DNA from: Alphaproteobacteria bacterium
Lineage (GTDB): Bacteria; Pseudomonadota; Alphaproteobacteria; Caulobacterales; Parvularculaceae
NCBI GenBank assembly: GCA_013151255.1
Contig: JAADIQ010000120.1
Span: 20,894 to 84,893 of the forward strand
Direction of reading: 5' to 3'
Length of the DNA: 64,000 nucleotides
The translations under genes were made by a program, and so were the position numbers. Shown here in pieces: positions 4,564 to 19,248 of this stretch; position 1 is the first letter of the stretch; every line of letters begins with the position of its first letter. The notes under the pieces were generated by a model. It did not search any database and was not told the origin of the DNA. It saw only the letters and a list, made by a program, of their open reading frames with translations.

Positions 4564-7191
4564 ATGTTGCATTTCATAGAGAAGATCCTGATCGCCTGGG
4601 CGGACGCGGCAAGGCGCGGCGGCCTGGCGCTGGCGCTCGGCTTTATCGCCGTGACGGGGTTGGCTGGCTATTACGCCGCTACCCATCTCAAGGTGAACAC
4701 CGACACCAGCGCGATGCTTGATCCGTCGCTGCCATTTCAGCTTCGCGCGGCGGCGCTGCGCGACGCCTTTCCGCAAACCAAAACCGACATCATTGTCATC
4801 GCGCGGGCAAAAACGCTGGACGAGGCGGACGCCTTCATCGCTGATTTGCGCGCCGTGGTCGCAGAAGAAAAGACCGCCTTCACCAGCGTTTTCGCCCCCG
4901 CGCAAGAGCCGTTCTTTCAGAAAAACGGGCTGCTCTATCTCAGCGAAGATGCGCTTGAAGACCGGCTGACGCAGATGTCGAAAGCCTCCGGGTTGATTGA
5001 GACGCTGATCAAAAGCCCGACCATCGGCACGCTATTCACCACCCTTGCCGGCAACGACAAACTCGCCGAGCGCTCCGACCTCGGCCAGGACACGCTGCAA
5101 CAACTCTACAAAGAGTTGAGCGTTGTCGTTGAGGCGAGCATCGAAGGAGAGGTCAGACCGTTCTCGTGGATGGGCGCGCTGGATGAGGACATCGCCGCCA
5201 GCGACAGCCATACGCGGCTCCTATACGCAACGCCGGTGCTCGACTTTAGTCGGCTGCAACCGGCCAAAGCCGGCATCGAAGTTCTGCGCGGCGAAATTGA
5301 CGCGCTGTCTCAAAAATATAGCGGCCGGGTTAAGGCCTATGTCACTGGCGATCCGGCGTTGCGGGTGGAAGAACTTGAAGCGGTCACCACCGGCATCGGC
5401 CTGTCGATGGTGCTTTCGCTGATCCTGGTGAGCCTGCTTTTACTGCTGTGTTACCGCTCCGCGGCGATGGTGGTGCTGACTTTGACCGGGCTCATCATCA
5501 CCTTGGTTTTGACGTCAGCTTTTGCAGCCGCGTTTTTGGGCGAGTTAAATCTGGTTTCCGTCGCCTTTACGGTGTTGCTGATCGGGCTGGGGCTCGATTT
5601 TGCCATTCACCTCCTCTTACATGTGCAAGAGCGCCGCGATGATGGCCAGGACAACGCCGCCGCGCTCACCGGCGCCTTGCATGAGGTTGGCCCGGCGATG
5701 GCGCTGGCCGCGCCGACAACGGCGCTGGCGTTTTTATCTTTTGTGCCGACGAAATTTGACGGCATCGCCCAGCTCGGGATGATTTCCGCCGCCGGGGTGA
5801 TTATCGCCTTTATGGTTTCCGTCACCTTCCTGCCGGCGGCGCTGGCGCGTCTTCCCGCCGCGAAAGTTAGAAAACGAAGCGGCCGCATTCGCGCGATTTT
5901 TCAATCCCTGTCGAAGGTCGCGGGACCGGTCGCGTTCGTGACCGTCCTGATCGGCATCTTTGCGCTCCTGTTAATGCCGCAGGTGCGCTTTGACGCTGAC
6001 CAAATGTCGCTGCGCAACCCCAATGCGCCCTCTGTCATCGGCTTCAATATGCTGTTTGACGACGCGGCAACCGTGCCCTACCGGCTAACCCGGCTGGTCG
6101 GCAGCGAAGCGGCCGCGCGCGAGACCTCAGCCGAGGCGGCGGCGCTGCCATCGGTCGCCAGCACCCGGTCATTGCCGGATTTTGTGCCTGAAGATCAGGA
6201 CGAAAAGCTTGAATTAATCGATTTCGCGGCGGGAACACTGGTGTTCGCCCTCGCCGCCGAGCCCGCCAGCATTGCCGGCCCACCTGCGACTGAGGGTATC
6301 GCCAAATTACAGGCCCGGCTCAAAGAAGCGTATACGGACGGCCCCGGCGCACGCCTTGCTGCACTACTCGGCGATTTGGCGGCAGTGGGCGATCCAGCCG
6401 CTATAGAGCGTCTTGAGCGGAATACCTTTCTCTATTGGCCGCAACTGGTAGAACGCCTGAGCGCGCAAATGAACGCTGATTATATTGATGTCGATAGTTT
6501 GCCCACCTCATTACGCGAGCGATATTTATCAGCGGACGGTATCTGGCGCGTCGACATTCTTCCCAAACAGGACCTACGCGACAACAATGCGCTGAACGCA
6601 TTTGTCGACGACGTCGAAAAACATTTTCCCGATCTTACCGGTGGCGCACTGCAATCGAAAAAAGCTGGTGAGGTTATTTCCAACGCGATGCTTCAGGCGA
6701 CCCTGATTGCATTCGCGGTGATCGCCGTTTTCCTCTGGCTGTTGGTGCGGCGCATCCTGACGGTGCTGCTGGTTCTGTTTCCGTTGTTGCTCGCCGCCAT
6801 CCTCACCGCTGCAACCGGCGTTTTGCTGGACGCGCCGTTTAACTACGCCAATGTCATCGTCTTGCCGTTGTTGATCGGCATCGGCGTCGATAGCGGCATC
6901 CATCTGGTCATGCGCCACGACCAGGTAACCGCCGGCGAAGGCGTCTATGGCACATCAACGCCGCGGGCAGTCCTGTTTGCGGCGCTGACCACGGTCGCCT
7001 CCTTTGGCAGCTTGATGTTGTCACCGCATCGCGGCACCGCCAGCATGGGCGAGTTGCTGACCATCGCCCTCGCGATCACCATAATTTGTACGCTGGTGGT
7101 TTTGCCGGCGGCTTTTAATTACGCCGACAAGCGCCTGAAAGACCGCCTCGAAGCCATGGCCAATCGCCGTAATATTCAGAAGAAACAATAG
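4564..7191 (+). CDS. hpnN: MMPL/RND family hopanoid transporter
   Basis: 875 aa, two TM bundles each with a GxGxD motif (GLGLDFAIH, GIGVDSGIH), large extracytoplasmic loops, hpn context. Confidence 0.85.
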   Translation: MLHFIEKILIAWADAARRGGLALALGFIAVTGLAGYYAATHLKVNTDTSAMLDPSLPFQLRAAALRDAFPQTKTDIIVIARAKTLDEADAFIADLRAVVAEEKTAFTSVFAPAQEPFFQKNGLLYLSEDALEDRLTQMSKASGLIETLIKSPTIGTLFTTLAGNDKLAERSDLGQDTLQQLYKELSVVVEASIEGEVRPFSWMGALDEDIAASDSHTRLLYATPVLDFSRLQPAKAGIEVLRGEIDALSQKYSGRVKAYVTGDPALRVEELEAVTTGIGLSMVLSLILVSLLLLLCYRSAAMVVLTLTGLIITLVLTSAFAAAFLGELNLVSVAFTVLLIGLGLDFAIHLLLHVQERRDDGQDNAAALTGALHEVGPAMALAAPTTALAFLSFVPTKFDGIAQLGMISAAGVIIAFMVSVTFLPAALARLPAAKVRKRSGRIRAIFQSLSKVAGPVAFVTVLIGIFALLLMPQVRFDADQMSLRNPNAPSVIGFNMLFDDAATVPYRLTRLVGSEAAARETSAEAAALPSVASTRSLPDFVPEDQDEKLELIDFAAGTLVFALAAEPASIAGPPATEGIAKLQARLKEAYTDGPGARLAALLGDLAAVGDPAAIERLERNTFLYWPQLVERLSAQMNADYIDVDSLPTSLRERYLSADGIWRVDILPKQDLRDNNALNAFVDDVEKHFPDLTGGALQSKKAGEVISNAMLQATLIAFAVIAVFLWLLVRRILTVLLVLFPLLLAAILTAATGVLLDAPFNYANVIVLPLLIGIGVDSGIHLVMRHDQVTAGEGVYGTSTPRAVLFAALTTVASFGSLMLSPHRGTASMGELLTIALAITIICTLVVLPAAFNYADKRLKDRLEAMANRRNIQKKQ

Positions 7192-7365: not shown

Positions 7366-7998
7366 ATGTTTATGTCTCGGGTTCGCATTTTCGCCGCGCT
7401 GATCGCAGCGGCCTCAGTTACCGCGCCGGTCCAGGCGGCGGACGAGCCAGCGGCGGCGGAAGCGGAAAATTCGCGGATCGACGCTGCGGTCGCCTTTGCC
7501 AAAGCGCTGACCAATGGCGCCACCGTCGCGCTCACCGATGAAACCGCTGACGAGGCGACGCGGCTTGAGAATTTTCGCGTGGTGCTCGCCGACGGGCTCG
7601 CGCTCGACACCATCGGCAGGTTCATGCTCGGCGCGACGCGCAAAACCATGAGCGATGAACAAACCGCGCGCTATAATGCAATTTTTCCACAATATATCAC
7701 AAAACTCTACGCCGAGCAGTTTGACGAGATTGTCGGCAAGCCGCTTGAGGTGGTTGACGCAAAACAAATCGGCGCCCGCGACGTCATCGTCCGCACCCAG
7801 TTTGACCGCAAGGACAACGCGCCGATTATGGTCGACTGGCGCATACGCGAATTACGCTCCGGCGACCGCAAAGCCATCGACATCATCGTCTCCGGCGTCT
7901 CCATCATGTTAGTCAAACGCGAAGAGTTTTCATCGTTTATTGAAACCAATGGGGTCGATGCGTTGCTGGATCGGCTGGAAGTGGAAGCTGCTGGTTAA
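7366..7998 (+). CDS. hpnM: MlaC/Ttg2D family periplasmic lipid carrier (HpnM-like)
   Basis: Signal peptide, VDWR and IDIIVSGVS...REEF motifs of the MlaC family, directly after hpnN. Confidence 0.75.
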   Translation: MFMSRVRIFAALIAAASVTAPVQAADEPAAAEAENSRIDAAVAFAKALTNGATVALTDETADEATRLENFRVVLADGLALDTIGRFMLGATRKTMSDEQTARYNAIFPQYITKLYAEQFDEIVGKPLEVVDAKQIGARDVIVRTQFDRKDNAPIMVDWRIRELRSGDRKAIDIIVSGVSIMLVKREEFSSFIETNGVDALLDRLEVEAAG

Positions 7999-8261: not shown

Positions 8262-9149
8262 TCAGCTCTTCCGCTCAAACACAAAATCCGCGGCGCCTTT
8301 CAGCGGCGCGGCGACATCCCCGAACCGGTCCAAATGCGCTTTCGCGCTTTCCACCAGCTCAGCCGCTTTGGCTTTGGCGCCGTCCATGCCGAACAGTTTG
8401 ATGAAGGTCGCCTTGTCCATTTCGCTGTCCTGCCCGACCGGCTTGCCGAGTGCTTGCGCGTCGCTGGTCTCATCGAGGATGTCGTCGACAATCTGGAAGG
8501 CAAGACCGAGGTCTTCCGCATAGGCGCTGAGCGCTGCGATCTCGTCAGTCGACCCGCCGCCCACAATACCGCCGCCGACCGCGCCAAAGCGGATGAGGGC
8601 GCCGGTTTTCAGGCGCTGTAATTGCGTGACGCCGTCAAGGTCGAAATTCTTTTGCTCGGCATAGATGTCAATCATCTGGCCGCCGACCATGCCTTCCTTG
8701 CCGCTTGCGCGGGCAAGCTCTAGCGCCAGCGCGCAACGGATATTGGCGTCGGGATGGGTTTCTTCCTCCGCCAGAATTTCAAACGCCTGGGTCAACAACG
8801 CATCGCCTGCAAGGATCGCGGTGGCGTCGTCATATTTCTTATGCACCGAAGGCCGCCCGCGTCGCAGGTCGCTATCATCCATCGCCGGCAAATCATCATG
8901 GATGAGGCTGTAACAATGGATCATTTCCACCGCGCAGCTGACCCGAACCGAGCGCACGCGCGGGCAATCAAACATATCCGCCGCGCCAACCACCAGAAAC
9001 GGACGCAGCCTTTTGCCGCCATCAAGCGCGCCCCAGCGCATCGCGTCCGCCACCCGGCCGAGCGGGCCGTCCTGGGTCGGCAGGAATTCATCGAGCGCAG
9101 TCTCCACCAGCGCGGCGATTTCCTTAATGGTTTGAGCAAATACAGACAT
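8262..9149 (-). CDS. ispA: Farnesyl diphosphate synthase / geranyltranstransferase
   Basis: GGKRLRP, SLIHDDLPAMDDSDLRRG, GQMID, KTGAL and FQIVDDILD motifs. Confidence 0.95.
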   Translation of the reverse strand: MSVFAQTIKEIAALVETALDEFLPTQDGPLGRVADAMRWGALDGGKRLRPFLVVGAADMFDCPRVRSVRVSCAVEMIHCYSLIHDDLPAMDDSDLRRGRPSVHKKYDDATAILAGDALLTQAFEILAEEETHPDANIRCALALELARASGKEGMVGGQMIDIYAEQKNFDLDGVTQLQRLKTGALIRFGAVGGGIVGGGSTDEIAALSAYAEDLGLAFQIVDDILDETSDAQALGKPVGQDSEMDKATFIKLFGMDGAKAKAAELVESAKAHLDRFGDVAAPLKGAADFVFERKS

Positions 9150-9168
9150 GACTGCCTTCAAACAGTAA

Positions 9169-10122: not shown

Positions 10123-11121
10123 ATGCCTGCTACCGAAAAGCTGAATGTCCTGCTTGCGCAACCACGCGGCTTCTGCGCCGGCGTTGAGCGGGCGATAGAC
10201 ATTGTCGAGCGGGCGCTGGAGAAATTCGGCGCGCCGGTCTATGTCCGCCACGAGATTGTCCACAACAAATTCGTCGTCGATACGCTGCGCGCGCGCGGCG
10301 CCATCTTCGTTGAGGAAGTCGATGAAGTCCCGACAGGCGCGGTCACCGTGTTTTCCGCCCATGGCGTTGCAAAAAAAGTTGAGAACGGCGCGCTTGAACG
10401 AATGCTGGACGTAATTGACGCAACCTGTCCGCTGGTCACCAAAGTGCACAAAGAAGGCCGCCGCTACGCCGAGAGGGGCTACGACATCGTTCTCATCGGT
10501 CATATCGGTCATCCGGAAGTCGAAGGCACGCTCGGGCAAATTCCGGGCACCGTTCATGTTCTTTCCGAGGCCAACGAAGTCGAAGCTTTAAGCGTCACCG
10601 ATGAAAACCGCGTCGCCTTCGTCACCCAGACCACCCTGTCGGTGAACGACACCAAAGACGTCATCGCCGCGCTCAAAACACGTTTTCCTAATATTATCGG
10701 CCCCGACACCAGAGACATCTGTTACGCCACGCAAAACCGCCAAACCGCGGTTATCGCCATGGCCAAGGAAGTTGATCTGTTGCTGGTGGTCGGCGCCCAT
10801 AATTCCTCAAACTCAAACCGCCTTCGCGAAATCGGCGAGAACAATCACATTCCGAGCTATCTGATCGAAGATGCTTCGATGTTTGACCCGGCCTGGCTTG
10901 AGGGCGTGCACAGAGTTGGTATTACCGCCGGCGCCTCAGCGCCGGAGAGCCTGGTTCAAGACACCATCGCACGGCTGCGCAATTATCGTGATGTCTCGGT
11001 CTCGACCCTCGACGGGGTTGAAGAAAATGTGCATTTCAAGCTGCCGCGCGAGCTGGCTGATGTTCCGCGGCCGGAAGATGCAATGAAAGCCTGGGCCGTT
11101 AGTCCCGTTGAACACGCCTGA
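10123..11121 (+). CDS. ispH: 4-hydroxy-3-methylbut-2-enyl diphosphate reductase
   Basis: [41 protein letters not shown] and SSNSNRL motifs. Confidence 0.97.
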
Positions 11122-11151: not shown

Positions 11152-12306
11152 ATGTCCGTATCATTACACCAGCAAGCCCGCGTCGGCGCCTATGTGGTCA
11201 AGCAGACCCTTATGGGCCGCAAGAAATATCCGCTGGTGCTGTTTCTTGAACCGCTGTTTCGCTGCAACCTCGCCTGCCCGGGCTGCGGTAAAATCGATTA
11301 CCCCGCGCCGATCCTCAACAAGCGTCTGTCGGTCCAGGAATGCTTTGATGCGGTTGATGAATGCGGCGCGCCAGTTGTCGCCATCCCCGGCGGCGAGCCT
11401 TTAATCCATAAGGATATTGGTGAAATCGTCGAGGGCATCGTGGCGCGTAAAAAGTTCGTCTCGCTATGCACCAATGCGCTGCTCCTGGAAAAGAAACTCG
11501 ACCTGTTCAAACCGTCGCCGTTTTTGTTTTTCTCCGTTCACTTAGATGGGCTTGAAGAAGAACACGACCACGCGGTCGACCAAAAAGGCACCTTCAAAAT
11601 TGCCGTTAAAGCGATTAAGGCGGCGCAAGCGCGCGGCTTTCAGGTCAATGTCAACGCCACGATTTTTGACAACATGACCGCGAAACAAGTTGCCGATTAT
11701 CTCGATTTCGCCACCGACCTTGGCGTCAACATTACGATCTCGCCGGGCTACGCCTATGAGCGCGCTGAAGACGCCGACCACTTCTTGTCACGCGAGAAAA
11801 CCAAACAGCTGTTCCGCGATATTTTCAAAATCGGCAAAGACCGCAATCGCCTATGGAACTTCTCGCACTCGTCTTTGTTTCTCGATTTCCTGGCCGGCAA
11901 CCAGGAATATAAATGCACGCCATGGGGCTCGCCCACGCGCAGCGTCTTTGGCTGGCAAAAACCCTGCTACCTGCTTGGCGAGGGTTATGTGTCGTCGTTC
12001 AAGGAACTGATGGAAACGACCGACTGGGACCAATACGGCACCGGCGCTTATGAGAAATGTTCCAACTGCATGGCCCATTGCGGTTATGAGCCGACGGCGG
12101 CGATGGATGCGGTTAAAAATCCGCTGAAAATGTTTAAACTGCCGAACATGTTCAAGATCAAAACCGAAGGCCCAATGGCGCCGGAGATCAATCTTTCCAA
12201 CGCCCGGCCGGCCGTGGACGTCCACGAAAAGCTGGTGGAAGCGGAAATGTCAAAGATCGCAGCTGAGAAAAAGGCGGCCAAACAACGGGACGAGGTCGCG
12301 GCGTAG
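11152..12306 (+). CDS. hpnH: Adenosyl-hopene transferase (radical SAM)
   Basis: LEPLFRCNLACPGCGKI CxxxCxxC motif, GNQEYKCTPWG, CYLL and CSNCMAHCGYE, all typical of HpnH. Confidence 0.93.
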   Translation: MSVSLHQQARVGAYVVKQTLMGRKKYPLVLFLEPLFRCNLACPGCGKIDYPAPILNKRLSVQECFDAVDECGAPVVAIPGGEPLIHKDIGEIVEGIVARKKFVSLCTNALLLEKKLDLFKPSPFLFFSVHLDGLEEEHDHAVDQKGTFKIAVKAIKAAQARGFQVNVNATIFDNMTAKQVADYLDFATDLGVNITISPGYAYERAEDADHFLSREKTKQLFRDIFKIGKDRNRLWNFSHSSLFLDFLAGNQEYKCTPWGSPTRSVFGWQKPCYLLGEGYVSSFKELMETTDWDQYGTGAYEKCSNCMAHCGYEPTAAMDAVKNPLKMFKLPNMFKIKTEGPMAPEINLSNARPAVDVHEKLVEAEMSKIAAEKKAAKQRDEVAA

Positions 12307-12954
12307 AGTTTTTAACGCCGCCGAGCTATCGGCGCCGAGCTTCATCAAAGCCGGAAACTGTTTGGGATCACGCATCGCCGCGCCCAATGTCGCCAGTATG
12401 CGCGTCGATCCGTCTGGCGCAACGGCGCCCAGCGCCGCCGGCGGCAAAGCCCTGTCCGCCGGATCGGCAATCGCGCGGATCGCAAGGAAAGGAACGCCGG
12501 CGCTTGCCGCTGCACGCGCCGCCCCATGGCTTTCCATATCAACGCCAAGCGCATGATGGCTGCGATAGAGCGCGGCTTTTTTCTCGATGCTTTCGATGAT
12601 ATCATCAGCGCCGAACAAAGCGCCAATCTTCGCCGTCGCGGCGGCAGGCTCCTCCGCGATTGTATCCAATAAACGCCGGTCGCTTTCACAGACTTGCCCA
12701 TCGCCGTAGAGAACCCGGTCGCCAATAATCAGATCGCCCGACGCGAGCGATGGATCAAGCCCGCCGGAAACACCGACGCTGACAATCGCGGCAGCGCCCT
12801 CACCGCAAAATTCCCGCGCAATCTCTTCCGCACGCGCAGCATTGGCGCCGGAAACCCCAACACGGATTTTCGGTGCGTCAAGCACACGCAAAATAACCTG
12901 CGCTTCAGATTTCAATCCGCAAATGACGGCGATGAAGTTGTCTACATCTCTCAT
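12250..12954 (-). CDS. hpnG: Hopanoid-associated nucleosidase/phosphorylase
   Basis: PNP/MTAN fold motifs GVSGGLDP, VDMES and IRAIADP; hpn context; ATGA overlap with hpnE. Confidence 0.88.
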   Translation of the reverse strand: MRDVDNFIAVICGLKSEAQVILRVLDAPKIRVGVSGANAARAEEIAREFCGEGAAAIVSVGVSGGLDPSLASGDLIIGDRVLYGDGQVCESDRRLLDTIAEEPAAATAKIGALFGADDIIESIEKKAALYRSHHALGVDMESHGAARAAASAGVPFLAIRAIADPADRALPPAALGAVAPDGSTRILATLGAAMRDPKQFPALMKLGADSSAALKTLRRDLVPLFGRLFLSCDL

Positions 12955-14222
12955 GCAATCGCACGCATCGCCAACGCCGCCGCCTTGTTCCCCGACCTTA
13001 TCGAGCCCTCAATCGTCGCCGGCACCCCGGTGTCGGTGTGATCGCCGGCGAGGAACAAGTTACGATATTCGGTTTCAGCTTTTAGCCGTCTCGCGGCGCC
13101 GGCTGGCGACTGGTCCGGTGTGGCGCGCTTTTCGCGGATTACCCGCACCCGTTCATAGTCCGTGTCGCCCAATTCGAGCGCAGTTTGAACCTCGCGCCAA
13201 ACCTGGTTTACGACATCATCATTGGGACGGTCATCGGCGCCGATGGCGTTTGAAGCGGAAGTTGTGACGCTGATCACGTCGTCGCGCACAAACACCCACT
13301 GCGCCAGCGACGACACAAGTGCGATGAATGGCCCCTCGCCTAACGCCTTCATGGGAGCCGCCGCGCCTAACCGGTAATGTATATTCAAAATGCTGGCGTC
13401 ATCGTTTGGCGGGTCCAACTGCGGCATGATTTGTTTCAATCGCGATGGCGGGATCGCGAAGATTACCTGATCGCCCGCCTCCAGCGTCACCGTCTCATCA
13501 ACAAAAGAAAGGCTGGTCACCGCGCCGCCTTCCATCCACGCGCTGCGCAATCTCGCGCCGAAACGTATGACCCCGCCATTAGATTCGATAAATTTCACCG
13601 CCGGATCAATGAACGCCGGCCCGAGGCCTTGTTTGGCGACCAACGGCGTTGAGGCTTGCCCACCCAGCAGGAAAGTCTCGCGAATGACGCTCCATAACAG
13701 CCGCGCCTGGCCGCGCTCCGGCGTGGTGTTCAACACCGCCAACGTCAATGGCTCCCAAAACCGTTCAAACAACACGCCGTTGCGGTCAATGGCGCCGGCA
13801 ACCGTCTTGTCGGCACCCGCAAGCGCGACGCCAGCAGCTTTTGCGTAGTCCCAAACCTTTGTATCGGGTACGCGAGAATGTTTGCCGAACACCCAGAACG
13901 GGATCGGCCCCTCATTCATCCGCACCGTCCAGCGCTTGCCGGTTTTCACATCGACAAAAGGATAGGCGGCAAAAGGCGGGCCTGTCAGCGCGTCAACCGA
14001 ACCGATCGTATCAAGGAACGCCAGTGCAGACTTGTTGCCCGACATGATCAGATGATTGCCATTGTCGATATCACGCTCGAGATGTTTGTCGTAAAAAGAG
14101 CGGCAGCGCCCGCCCGCTTGTCTCGCGCTTTCATATATGATTACGCGATGTCCGCTCTCAACCAAGCGAACGCCAGCCGCCAGCCCCGCCAGTCCGGCGC
14201 CAATGATATGTACACGGCTCAT
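12951..14222 (-). CDS. hpnE: Hydroxysqualene dehydroxylase
   Basis: FAD motif GAGLAG, GGRCRS, IDNGNHL, EKRAT and TGVPATIEGSIRSG. Confidence 0.93.
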   Translation of the reverse strand: MSRVHIIGAGLAGLAAGVRLVESGHRVIIYESARQAGGRCRSFYDKHLERDIDNGNHLIMSGNKSALAFLDTIGSVDALTGPPFAAYPFVDVKTGKRWTVRMNEGPIPFWVFGKHSRVPDTKVWDYAKAAGVALAGADKTVAGAIDRNGVLFERFWEPLTLAVLNTTPERGQARLLWSVIRETFLLGGQASTPLVAKQGLGPAFIDPAVKFIESNGGVIRFGARLRSAWMEGGAVTSLSFVDETVTLEAGDQVIFAIPPSRLKQIMPQLDPPNDDASILNIHYRLGAAAPMKALGEGPFIALVSSLAQWVFVRDDVISVTTSASNAIGADDRPNDDVVNQVWREVQTALELGDTDYERVRVIREKRATPDQSPAGAARRLKAETEYRNLFLAGDHTDTGVPATIEGSIRSGNKAAALAMRAIA

Positions 14223-14253: not shown

Positions 14254-15150
14254 TTAACCCGCCCACGATCTTGGCGCCTTCAGCCTCGGGGCGACGAACC
14301 AGCGCGCGGCGATCCTTAGTTTCTGGAATTTTGAAATCTCGGGCTTGGGCTGGCCATTGTCCCAGCCGCGCGCCGTCATCATGTTGAGATAGTGTTCATA
14401 AACACCCATCATCAGGAGGGCGGGCCGCAGCATTCTCCAGTCCAGATGAACAAGCGCTGCACGCGTCGCTGCAAATTTTTTGCGCGCTACCGCGGCTAAT
14501 TCTTCACGCACTTGCGGCAGGCCGGGGGCCATCGCGATAGTATCCGGACGGAGCGGGCAGTCATATTTTTTGAGCAGCTCCGCCGGCAGGTAAAGCCGGC
14601 CTTCGCCCGCATCTTCTTCGACATCACGCAATATGTTGGTGAGCTGTAGCGCGTCGCCCAGCGACAAGGCGAAATCCTCCGCCGCCTGGCTTTGCGGCGC
14701 GCCAAACACCGGCATCGACAACATGCCAACGGCGCCGGCGGCGCGGCGGGTATAGGCGAGAAGCCCGTCCATCGTCGGCGCGATAATCGGACCAGCCGCA
14801 TCCATCTCCATGCCCTCGATCACCAGGATGAATTCCCCCTTGGGCAAATCAAAGTCTCTGATATGCTCCAACAGCGCAACACCGGTCGGCGTTGTCGGCG
14901 CGCCGCGATAGAGCCGCTCAATTTCCATCCGCCAGGCGCCGAGCCCGGATTGTTTTTCCTGAAGCGTTCCGGGCTCATCGGCGATATCATCAACCTCGCG
15001 ACAAAAGGCGTAAATCGCATACATCGCTTCGCGCCGCTCTCGTGACAGGATGCGCATGCCGGCGCCAAACGAGGTGCCGGATTTCGCAACCGTCGCCTGC
15101 GCATGGCGGCGCGCCTCGGCAAGGGATATGGCCGGCGCGGCAACGCTCAT
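14254..15150 (-). CDS. hpnD: Presqualene diphosphate synthase
   Basis: SGTSF, YAFCREVDDIAD, GMEMD and LQLTNILRDVEEDA motifs. Confidence 0.93.
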   Translation of the reverse strand: MSVAAPAISLAEARRHAQATVAKSGTSFGAGMRILSRERREAMYAIYAFCREVDDIADEPGTLQEKQSGLGAWRMEIERLYRGAPTTPTGVALLEHIRDFDLPKGEFILVIEGMEMDAAGPIIAPTMDGLLAYTRRAAGAVGMLSMPVFGAPQSQAAEDFALSLGDALQLTNILRDVEEDAGEGRLYLPAELLKKYDCPLRPDTIAMAPGLPQVREELAAVARKKFAATRAALVHLDWRMLRPALLMMGVYEHYLNMMTARGWDNGQPKPEISKFQKLRIAARWFVAPRLKAPRSWAG

Positions 15151-16058
15151 CGCCTTGCGCCCCGACCAGCGGCGAAGAAGCCGCCGACGACGCCGCGCAA
15201 CCCGGCCGAGGCAAGGTCGAGCTTGGTCAACGCCACGCGTGTCGCCAACGGATCGCCCTGCCGCAACAGCACAATCAACCGGTCAGCGACATTGACAATC
15301 ACCGCCGATTCCATCGCCAGATGCCGCGATTGCAGCGCCCTTGGCAATTCGCGTGCGTGCACCATCAACTCATCGCAACAGATCAGCATGCGGTCCACCA
15401 CCCGGCGCAGCCCCGGCGTCAGCGCATCGCCATCAACATCTTCAATAGACGCACCCTCTTGCGCCATCCAGTCGCCGATTAAATACACCCGGTCGAGAGC
15501 GCGCCGGTCATCGCCGCAATCCTGCAGATGATTGACCACCTGCAATACCGTGCAGAGCGCATCAGAATAAACATAACCGCTTTTGTCCTCGCCATGGAGG
15601 TCAAGAAGATAACGCCCGACAGGATTTGCCGACAGCTCGCAATAGCCGAGCAATTCGTCCCAGCTCGCATAGCGATTTTTTTGCGCATCCTGCACGAAGG
15701 CGGCGACAAGGTCGGAGCCGTGCTTTGTGGTCACCCCGGTCGCGCTAAGGCTCTCGCGCAAGGCATGGGCCTTGGCGAGGCGCGGGTCATCGTGCGCCTC
15801 ACCGCGCAGCGCCGCATCGAAGGCGCGCAATCGCGAGATTTTATCTTCCGCCGCCAGCGCCGGATTGTCGGCAATATCATCAATCGCGCGCGCAAACGCA
15901 TAATAGGTCGCAACATGCGGGCGCAGATGTTTCGGCAACAGGAACGAGCCGACGGGAAAGTTTTCATCGCCCGCGCCCTTGCCGGACGGCGTCTCGCTCG
16001 TCTCGCCCGGGGCGTCGGGCGTTGCGGTTTCCGGCGCTGTTTTCAAAGTCGCAGACAT
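15147..16058 (-). CDS. hpnC: Squalene synthase HpnC
   Basis: ENFPVGS, YAFARAIDDIAD, SANPVGR and CTVLQVVNHLQD motifs. Start taken at MSATLK (an upstream ATG is possible). Confidence 0.92.
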   Translation of the reverse strand: MSATLKTAPETATPDAPGETSETPSGKGAGDENFPVGSFLLPKHLRPHVATYYAFARAIDDIADNPALAAEDKISRLRAFDAALRGEAHDDPRLAKAHALRESLSATGVTTKHGSDLVAAFVQDAQKNRYASWDELLGYCELSANPVGRYLLDLHGEDKSGYVYSDALCTVLQVVNHLQDCGDDRRALDRVYLIGDWMAQEGASIEDVDGDALTPGLRRVVDRMLICCDELMVHARELPRALQSRHLAMESAVIVNVADRLIVLLRQGDPLATRVALTKLDLASAGLRGVVGGFFAAGRGARR

Positions 16059-16155
16059 GGCCTGCACATTACGCATTTTGGCTGGTAATCCAAGCGCTTT
16101 GCCTGCGCTGAATACGCCCTTTGCGGGCGCGGCGGCGGCGCTGTAAGCAAGAGCC

Positions 16156-16329
16156 ATGAGCCTTGTCCTGATTGCCGCCGCCGCCTTCCTCGCCTGGATT
16201 TACCTCGCCCCGCCATGGGAAGCAGCCTTTTTTCTTACCGCGACGGGGCTATATACGCTGATGACCGTGGCTTCCGCCTTGCGGCACTGGCGCGGCCAAG
16301 ACGGGCAATGGAAAGGGCGAACTTATTAG
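16156..16329 (+). pseudogene. hpnB: 57-aa ORF resembling the N- and C-termini of glycosyltransferase HpnB fused in frame, with the catalytic domain missing
   Basis: Below the ORF-track cutoff. Manual translation: MSLVLIAAAAFLAWIYLAPPWEAAFFLTATGLYTLMTVASALRHWRGQDGQWKGRTY. The WxYL N-terminal helix and the LYTxMTxxSAxRHWRGxxGxWKGRxY tail are recalled features of HpnB. Adjacent to hpnC. Confidence 0.7.
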
Positions 16330-16480
16330 TTTGTTCATCTTGGTTATCACCCGGTTAGCACGCACCCCTGAGAACATCCTATTTATCCGTATAGTTCCTA
16401 TCTTCAATCGCTGTACTGATGTTTTAAACACAAGATTAACCATCAAAGCGTCTGATTGCATACGCAGATAATGCGAGGAT

Positions 16481-16759
16481 GTGATGATGAGTGACGATAT
16501 CCAACCCTTGGGACCGTTTTACGTCGAACTGGTCTATGAGAAAATCGGCAAAACCGCCACCGACGCGATAGACACCGCTTTCGTCGACGGTTTTTCCAGC
16601 GAGGCGGAAGCCTGGCGCGCCTGTCGTCGGTTACGCCGCGAGCCTTTTGATGCAGTCTCAACGGGCGGTGAGAATATTTTCCTCAAACCCGCTCAGCTGT
16701 TGCAAATGTTCATCGCTAAAGCCGCGCCGACAAATGCCTTCATCTTTGCGGGCGAGTAA
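16481..16759 (+). CDS. Hypothetical protein
   Basis: ORF of about 90 aa with a GAGGA ribosome-binding site just before the ATGs; fills the gap before uspA. No recognised motif. Confidence 0.6.
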   Translation: MMMSDDIQPLGPFYVELVYEKIGKTATDAIDTAFVDGFSSEAEAWRACRRLRREPFDAVSTGGENIFLKPAQLLQMFIAKAAPTNAFIFAGE

Positions 16760-16762
16760 AAA

Positions 16763-17251
16763 CTACCAATCGAGCTTTTTCGCATAGGCTTTTGTGACGA
16801 TAAAGACTGCGCAAGGCGCATCATGGATGAAATGCGTTGATGCGCTGCCCTGGAACAGGGCGCCCCAAAACCCTCGCTGGTGCGAACCGATGACAATCAA
16901 ATCCGCATCGACTTCCGCTGCGAAATCCGACACTGCCTGAGAGGCGTCGCCATCGAGAATAGTGGCGCTGGCGCCCGGCGCATATTTATCCACCAACTCG
17001 CTCAAACGTTCCTGACACACTACGCGCCCTTCTCGATGCATATCAAAGGAGGTTCGCCCGGCGACAGCGCCGGTGACGCCCATATCGGTGGCGAAGGCGG
17101 ATGTCTCAACACTAAGCGGCGGCCAAACGCTCACGGCACGGAGGTTTGCGCCGTTCTTATGCGCGAAGCTATCGGCAACCCGCAAAACATCCGAAGCCAA
17201 TTCATCTGAAACATCAACTGCGGCGATAATACGTTTAAATTGCATGTGCAT
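16763..17251 (-). CDS. Universal stress protein
   Basis: FKRIIAAVD, DADLIVIGSHQRG...GS and APCAVFIV, the UspA signatures. Confidence 0.9.
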   Translation of the reverse strand: MHMQFKRIIAAVDVSDELASDVLRVADSFAHKNGANLRAVSVWPPLSVETSAFATDMGVTGAVAGRTSFDMHREGRVVCQERLSELVDKYAPGASATILDGDASQAVSDFAAEVDADLIVIGSHQRGFWGALFQGSASTHFIHDAPCAVFIVTKAYAKKLDW

Positions 17252-17346
17252 TTCTCCCTGCCTGCTCTAATCCAGAGATGGGCGCAAATAACGCGCATCC
17301 CATGAGACAAGACGCCGCAATTATCTCGGTCCAGGCTATCGCATCA

Positions 17347-18258: not shown

Positions 18259-19248
18259 TCAAACCGGTTTCAGCAGTTGTTTGTGTTGCATCCAGTCAAG
18301 TGTTTTCGCCATCGCAGCGTCAACATCGCCCGCCGCCCAGCCGAGCTCGCGGCGCGCTTTTTCGCTGGAGAATGAAACCTGCCTGCCGGCCAGGCGCACG
18401 CCGGTCAACGGCGCCTTTGGCGGCTTGCCGGTAATGGCGGCGATCAGCCTGGTGTCAATCACCCCGGCGGCGAGCGCGACAGCGTAGGGCATCCGGGTTT
18501 TCGGCATCGCCCGTCCGGTCAGCTTTTCCAGCCTGTCGAGAAGTTGTTTCATGGCAATGTTTTCACCACCAAGCAGATAACGCTCTCCGACCTTGCCTTT
18601 GTCGCGAGCGGCGATCAGCCCTTCGGCCAGACTTTCAACGGGAACAAAATTCAAGATGCAATCGATGTAAGCGGGGGTGGCGCCATTGGCGAAGTCGAGG
18701 ATCATTTTCGTCGGAGGCGTCAGGCTGTCGTCGCCCGGCCCCAGCGGTTCAGTCGGCAGCGCAATGACCGCGTCCAGCCCCTCGCCCACCGCCGCCTCGA
18801 CGATGCGCTCCGCCGCCAGCTTTGAGCGCGGATAGGGCCCAAGCATATCGTCAGGGGCAAGCCGCACGGTTTCATCGGCAGTAGACAGACCGATGGGCGT
18901 CGCGCGCCCAACCAGCGTCGTCAGGCTCGAACAATGGACAAGGCGGCGGACGCCAGCCTTCATTACCGCACCAACAACAAGCTCCGTTCCAAGACGATTG
19001 ACGCGGTCAAAGACGCCCGCATCACGCGTCCAAAGCTGGGCGTTGCCCGCGAGATGAAACACCGTTGCAACACCGGTCATGGCGCTGTGCAAAGCGTCGA
19101 TATCAGTGATGGAGCCCTGCACATCATCCGGATGCACAGCAGCAGCAATATCGAAACTGCGCACGGTCTCGCCGCACGCCCGCAAACTTTCGACTAGCTG
19201 CTTGCCGACAAAGCCGGCGCCGCCAGTGACCAGCGTAATACCACTCAC
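18259..19248 (-). CDS. NAD-dependent epimerase/reductase, HpnA/dihydroflavonol-reductase-like
   Basis: TGGAGFVG, VFHLAG, YPRSK (YxxxK), GPGD and GERYLLGGEN motifs. GTG start overlaps the upstream TGA. Confidence 0.85.
   Translation of the reverse strand: MSGITLVTGGAGFVGKQLVESLRACGETVRSFDIAAAVHPDDVQGSITDIDALHSAMTGVATVFHLAGNAQLWTRDAGVFDRVNRLGTELVVGAVMKAGVRRLVHCSSLTTLVGRATPIGLSTADETVRLAPDDMLGPYPRSKLAAERIVEAAVGEGLDAVIALPTEPLGPGDDSLTPPTKMILDFANGATPAYIDCILNFVPVESLAEGLIAARDKGKVGERYLLGGENIAMKQLLDRLEKLTGRAMPKTRMPYAVALAAGVIDTRLIAAITGKPPKAPLTGVRLAGRQVSFSSEKARRELGWAAGDVDAAMAKTLDWMQHKQLLKPV

Follow-up and report, generated by a model that had tools for sequence, protein, structure and literature searches.

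A 57-codon open reading frame beside hpnC is very probably a relic of hpnB left by an in-frame internal deletion

The window analysed here, a stretch of 64,000 nucleotides on one contig of an alphaproteobacterial genome (G000), contains a hopanoid gene cluster in which a short open reading frame (ORF) occupies the place of hpnB. The features that the argument needs are listed below; G047 denotes a second species of the genus that carries the same reading frame.

4564-7191, plus strand: hpnN
7366-7998, plus strand: HpnM-like gene
8262-9161, minus strand: ispA
10123-11121, plus strand: ispH
11152-12306, plus strand: hpnH
12250-12954, minus strand: hpnG
12951-14222, minus strand: hpnE
14254-15150, minus strand: hpnD
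15147-16058, minus strand: hpnC, encoding squalene synthase HpnC, intact (TIGR03464, 273.8 bits, above the cut-off)
16059..16155, no strand: divergent hpnC/hpnB intergenic region, 97 bp, 92.8% identical to that of G047
16156..16329, plus strand: remnant hpnB ORF, 57 codons plus TAG, supported by the C-terminal TIGR03469 match, collinearity, the gap and the split BLASTP match
16156..16210, plus strand: 5' piece, ancestral hpnB codons 1-18 and the first base of codon 19
16209..16211, plus strand: deletion junction in a GCCC/CGCC run, placed by alignment to four intact loci (L013, L014, L008 and L016) and the same in G047
16211..16329, plus strand: 3' piece, from the last two bases of ancestral codon 347 to codon 385, and the stop
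16481..16759, plus strand: conserved small gene of 92 codons, intact, syntenic with hpnB across at least 16 species of its genus

Beyond the small gene follow a Usp gene, a PhyH dioxygenase gene and, on the minus strand, an HpnA-like gene. The hpnC ORF as listed by the gene-finding program (336 aa, 15147-16157, minus strand) looks over-extended, and its ATG at 16157 overlaps the ATG of the remnant on the opposite strand. The real hpnC start is probably the ATG at 16058, judging from the alignment with relatives and from an HMM match that begins at residue 61.

The ORF at 16156-16329 (plus strand) starts with ATG, ends with TAG and encodes 57 aa; it reads exactly as quoted in the first-pass annotation, start, stop and open frame included, and it is indeed divergent from hpnC. 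That annotation took the peptide for the two ends of HpnB joined together and predicted a split match to both termini, which is what BLASTP against the 385-aa intact HpnB of the closest relative returned: residues 1-17 of the ORF coincide with residues 1-17 of the intact protein (17/17, 100%, E 7e-8), and residues 16-57 align with residues 344-385 (76%, E 1e-20). The NCBIfam HpnB profile, TIGR03469 (386 positions), aligns its positions 341-384 with ORF residues 14-57 (E 2.2e-9), in one stretch only and with 36.8 bits, below the curated whole-protein cut-off of 379.25 bits; the N-terminal piece has no HMM match because 17 residues are too short. Compared with the intact gene of G018, the 5' piece is identical at 17/17 amino acids and 48/51 nucleotides. 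The position and the orientation of the remnant are those of intact hpnB in four relatives, namely G018, G011, G015 and G008.

When the region 15000-17300 was compared by blastn with the same four relatives, it proved to be collinear on both sides with their hpnC-hpnB-downstream region (85-89% identity), and 984 bp (328 codons) were missing, corresponding to ORF nucleotides 56-1039 of the intact gene. The earlier estimate of about 320 codons removed in one in-frame deletion was correct. The junction falls between 16210 and 16211, with an ambiguity caused by a 2-nt CC microhomology, and reads CTC GCC C/CG CCA TGG, the first base of ancestral codon 19 being joined to the second base of codon 347. 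Nucleotide alignment to the intact relatives revealed no repeat, IS element or scar at the breakpoints. Recombination between the CGCCC pentamers found at the two breakpoints was considered and rejected, since the loss would then be 985 bp and out of frame, while the junction keeps one more C.

The model of the HpnB protein of an intact relative (pLDDT 74.5) comprises a helix at residues 2-22, a GT-A domain and helices at 290-312, 320-343 and 348-373. Its best structural neighbours are the membrane GT2 enzymes PcManGT (6yv7), BcsA and hyaluronan synthase; these were found by fold comparison alone, as a PDB sequence search with intact HpnB gave no match. Projected onto this model, the deletion took out the entire GT-A catalytic domain and two of the three C-terminal helices, and it shortened the first helix by a few residues at its end. 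With codons 19-346 deleted, the GT-A (GT2) catalytic domain is gone from the remnant together with its DxD and acceptor motifs, and the invariant D78 D79, D141-A-D143 and D236 D237 of intact relatives all lie inside the deleted part. The first reading of the sequence held that both membrane ends had been kept, and this stands for both termini and for the last helix, which is whole; of the first helix (2-22 in the full-length model) the 5' piece keeps only 17 of about 22 residues. In the 3' piece the last transmembrane helix is followed by the basic tail, RHWRGxGGQWKGRTY; both are still recognisable, but with P replaced by L and G by D at family-invariant positions. The remnant resembles HpnB (TIGR03469, a membrane GT2 protein of GT-A fold) in lying at the orthologous locus, divergent from hpnC, and in that its first 17 and last approximately 40 residues are HpnB sequence, but it differs in lacking 328 of 385 codons, the whole GT-A domain included, and in having lost invariant residues of the tail.

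Whether relatives share the deletion, and do so under purifying selection, had been proposed as a check on the fate of the ORF. The deletion is shared: G047, a separately assembled draft with about 90% identity over 20 kb, has this junction too, within a contiguous 421-nt match at 92% identity. Its remnant is intact with 56 codons, one codon fewer, and the two copies differ by one indel only, a slip of 3 nt within a (GCC)4 run. Purifying selection, in contrast, was not seen. The two remnants differ by 11 nonsynonymous and 4 synonymous changes (dN 0.094, dS 0.106), which gives an omega of about 0.9, or 1.2 under another alignment, and they are 80% identical in amino acids against about 91% in nucleotides. 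For the same species pair, omega is 0.12 for hpnC, 0.10 for hpnD, 0.12 for the Usp gene and 0.03 for the downstream small gene; among relatives it is 0.13-0.17 for intact hpnB and 0.16-0.37 for the same terminal segments of intact orthologues. A binomial test on the remnant, which draws its power from 15 substitutions in this one species pair, rejected an omega of 0.15 (p=0.001) and of 0.25 (p=0.019) and fitted an omega of 1, but did not reject 0.37, the highest value for these segments in intact genes (p=0.09).

The kind of residues replaced points in the same direction. In 24/24 full-length HpnB tails there is no variation in the LP motif, at the G of RGxGG or at the W of WKGR; the remnant in G000 has P replaced by L in the LP motif and G by D in RGxGGQWKGR, and the one in G047 has W replaced by S in WKGR. 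The open frame itself is not evidence of selection, because 15 random substitutions would leave about 42% of such ORFs uninterrupted. Judged from these 15 substitutions in one species pair, the remnant appears to be without protein-level constraint.

We therefore consider the ORF to be very probably a non-functional relic of hpnB, that is, a case of ordinary gene loss with a leftover reading frame that is drifting. The first-pass annotation had left the choice between a pseudogene and a retained two-helix microprotein; with a dN/dS of about 0.9 and invariant residues lost independently in both carriers, the former is favoured and the latter is not. Close relatives have an intact orthologue at the same locus, an essential part of which is missing here, and dN/dS is near 1 (omega 0.9-1.2 over only 15 substitutions). 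The counterpoint is that the ORF is open, with ATG and stop, in both carriers. On this reading of the ORF as a relic, one illegitimate deletion event, involving about 2 nt of microhomology but neither a repeat nor a mobile element, would have taken out 984 bp (codons 19-346), and it would have been in frame by chance, so that the original start and stop now bracket 57 codons. The deletion allele common to G000 and G047 would belong to a haplotype that is younger than the species split or that was exchanged by homologous recombination. After the deletion, substitutions would have accumulated regardless of codon position, each lineage changing residues that are invariant in intact HpnB, and only the short length of the ORF and the brief time since the deletion would have kept the frame open. 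The organism would thus have lost the accessory and functionally uncharacterised HpnB step, with the other genes of the hopanoid pathway intact. The remnant may well still be transcribed and translated, given that the region upstream of it is 92.8% conserved in comparison with G047.

The biology here is ordinary. The locus resembles other bacterial pseudogenes formed by internal deletion in having an intact orthologue in close relatives, a missing essential domain, a dN/dS of about 1 and independent, parallel losses in the same genus. It is unlike them in that the deletion is in frame and the relic reads as a complete ORF with the original start and stop, and it was for this reason that the remnant looked like a designed mini-protein.

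One could argue that the ORF encodes a two-helix membrane microprotein, composed of the fragment of the first transmembrane helix, the last helix and the basic tail. Such a protein would be made from the former hpnB expression signals and would have retained or acquired a role, such as binding a component of the hopanoid machinery that HpnB once partnered. In favour of this, both carrier species have an open frame with the original start and stop codons, the intergenic region upstream is conserved, and AlphaFold predicts a helix at residues 3-17, a PP turn and a helix at 20-54 (pLDDT 85). However, such a helix-PP-helix prediction is what the modelling would be expected to return for any fusion of two helix fragments, and the first helix, in which no more than about 15-17 hydrophobic residues are left, is short for a membrane-spanning segment. 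Moreover, omega is about 0.9, with 11 of the 15 changes nonsynonymous, family-invariant residues have been replaced in each lineage, and the gene has been removed completely in two further species (G003 and G043). No other such protein of 31-100 aa was found among 5.8 billion proteins: a homologous protein search with the 57-aa peptide returned the query itself only, an exact peptide look-up gave no record, strict and degenerate patterns spanning the junction had no match in metagenome scans, and a scan of genome contigs with the peptide recovered full-length HpnB tails only, in metagenome-assembled genomes (MAGs) labelled 'Marinicaulis sp.', and no other mini-HpnB. The remnant is similar to bacterial two-helix microproteins in size, hydrophobicity and predicted helix-turn-helix shape, but it differs from them in showing no purifying selection and in having no family of relatives, with two carriers only. 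Thus it is very unlikely that the ORF serves as a microprotein, and the narrower proposal, that the translated in-frame fusion survives in the membrane and still docks to the former HpnB partner, is very unlikely as well; if true, a microprotein would here have arisen through the loss of an enzyme's core.

Another explanation is that the DNA, and not the peptide, was kept for a role in cis: it could serve to pass transcription and translation on from the former hpnB promoter to the downstream small gene, the in-frame allele could avoid polarity, or its 5' end could overlap control sequences of hpnC. The small gene is indeed the next gene after hpnB in at least 16 species and has an omega of 0.03, and the remnant and both spacers are less diverged than the synonymous sites of the flanking genes. 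Between G000 and G047 the total divergence of the remnant is about 9% and that of both intergenic spacers about 7%, set against a synonymous divergence of 0.39 for the flanking hpnC and 0.36 for usp. However, the low divergence reaches the small gene's own synonymous sites (0.14 for this pair, compared with 0.4-1.2 between other species pairs), and a younger haplotype fits better; it is the preferred explanation because the small gene and the intergenic spacers are equally low in divergence. In addition, the small gene is separated from the remnant by a weak terminator-like hairpin (16315-16336) and a promoter-like site (16368-16395), and in G003 the small gene persists without an hpnB remnant upstream. 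The chance that a cis role accounts for the locus is accordingly very slim. The former hpnB promoter and ribosome-binding site are presumed to lie within 16059..16155 on the grounds of position; a promoter search of that interval gave no match. Structured RNA was rejected as a reason for the conservation, as the Rfam scan of 15900-16900 returned two sub-threshold chance matches only. The small gene at 16481-16759 has no Pfam or NCBIfam match and may encode an uncharacterised small protein of the hopanoid cluster.

Taken as a whole, the block at about 16059-16759, made up of the remnant, the small gene and the spacer on each side of the remnant, is approximately three-fold less diverged than its flanks (dS 0.10-0.14). 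This suggests that G000 and G047 share a more recent ancestor for the block with the deletion than for its flanks, either by homologous exchange or by a later sweep, and the remnant appears to be neutral when it is set against the local neutral rate. The HpnC protein tree leaves the branching of G000, G047 and G018 unresolved; by synonymous distances, G000 and G047 are the closest pair.

It is extremely improbable that the junction is an artefact, a collapse or chimeric join hiding a full-length hpnB: G000 is a metagenome-assembled draft of 131 contigs with 92% completeness, but the same junction is present in the assembly of another species differing at about 8-10% of positions, the breakpoints have no repeat able to cause a collapse, the missing segment is on no contig of either genome, and decay after the deletion is visible in both copies. 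The 986-bp segment of G018 that corresponds to the deletion found no match in the G000 and G047 assemblies, and as a positive control it matched at full length in G011, G015 and G008 (78-82% identity). An HMM search detected no full-length HpnB elsewhere in G000 or G047. Since the same junction occurs in a separate assembly, the deleted segment occurs in neither and no repeat flanks it, misassembly is very unlikely, and on these sequence comparisons we take the junction to be genuine.

The first-pass annotation had linked the loss of hpnB to a missing shc and had seen in both a targeted remodelling of the pathway. This part of the proposal did not survive. An intact shc is present on another contig of the genome (G000:C110 16092-17909, L006) as an open frame of 680 aa that scores 686 bits against a cut-off of 431. 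The apparently cyclase-less cluster reflects gene layout and not the loss of shc: in five relatives checked, shc is on a different contig from hpnB or distant from it, and in the closed genome G009 the two are 660 kb apart (hpnB at 2.758 Mb, shc at 3.419 Mb). In the window, hpnE and hpnG overlap by ATGA (12951-12954) with no shc between them, and the same hpnE-hpnG junction is found in the collinear G047. Only hpnB is affected; the pathway (hpnC, hpnD, hpnE, shc, hpnH, hpnG, hpnN and the HpnM-like and HpnA-like genes) is present, and the other hpn genes in the window are intact.

Full-length HpnB is found in 43 of 50 species of the genus and in 33 of the 34 high-quality genomes, G000 being the sole exception. 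In G003 (L046, G003:C190 1477-3046), hpnC is followed by about 250 bp and then a homologue of the small gene, with no trace of hpnB; in G043 (L048, G043:C93 866-2289), hpnC borders directly on usp, and the locus lacks hpnB, the small gene and phyH. The two assemblies are drafts (83-88% completeness), but the locus itself is assembled in both. The boundaries differ, and hpnB has been lost independently at least two more times in the genus. The function of HpnB is not established; a 2025 survey describes it as 'not essential' and reports it absent from 13 of 48 hpnH-positive alphaproteobacteria (PMC12583986), and the same has been said of HpnB for Acidobacteria (PMC5462960).

The general importance of the finding is small, as it represents a routine gene loss that happened to leave an open frame. 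Nevertheless, the locus amounts to a natural knock-out of hpnB, with the hopanoid cluster otherwise intact, and sister species at about 90% identity keep hpnB. Bacteriohopanepolyol profiles compared across these lineages could point to what HpnB adds. It is also a warning to annotators: where an internal deletion keeps the frame, the authentic start and stop enclose a neat ORF, which is then called as a small protein.

Two minor observations concern the surroundings of the cluster and the naming of its carriers. The HpnA-like NAD-dependent epimerase/reductase gene (18259-19248, minus strand) scores 301.9 bits, below the HpnA cut-off of 367.65, and is co-oriented with the PhyH-type dioxygenase gene and two genes without an NCBIfam match beside the hpn cluster. 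The nearest named records are MAGs labelled 'Marinicaulis sp.', and the 2025 survey (PMC12583986) lists cultured Marinicaulis among the genera without shc; yet shc is present in 5/5 relatives checked and in G000. The 'Marinicaulis sp.' label or the genus boundary may be loose.
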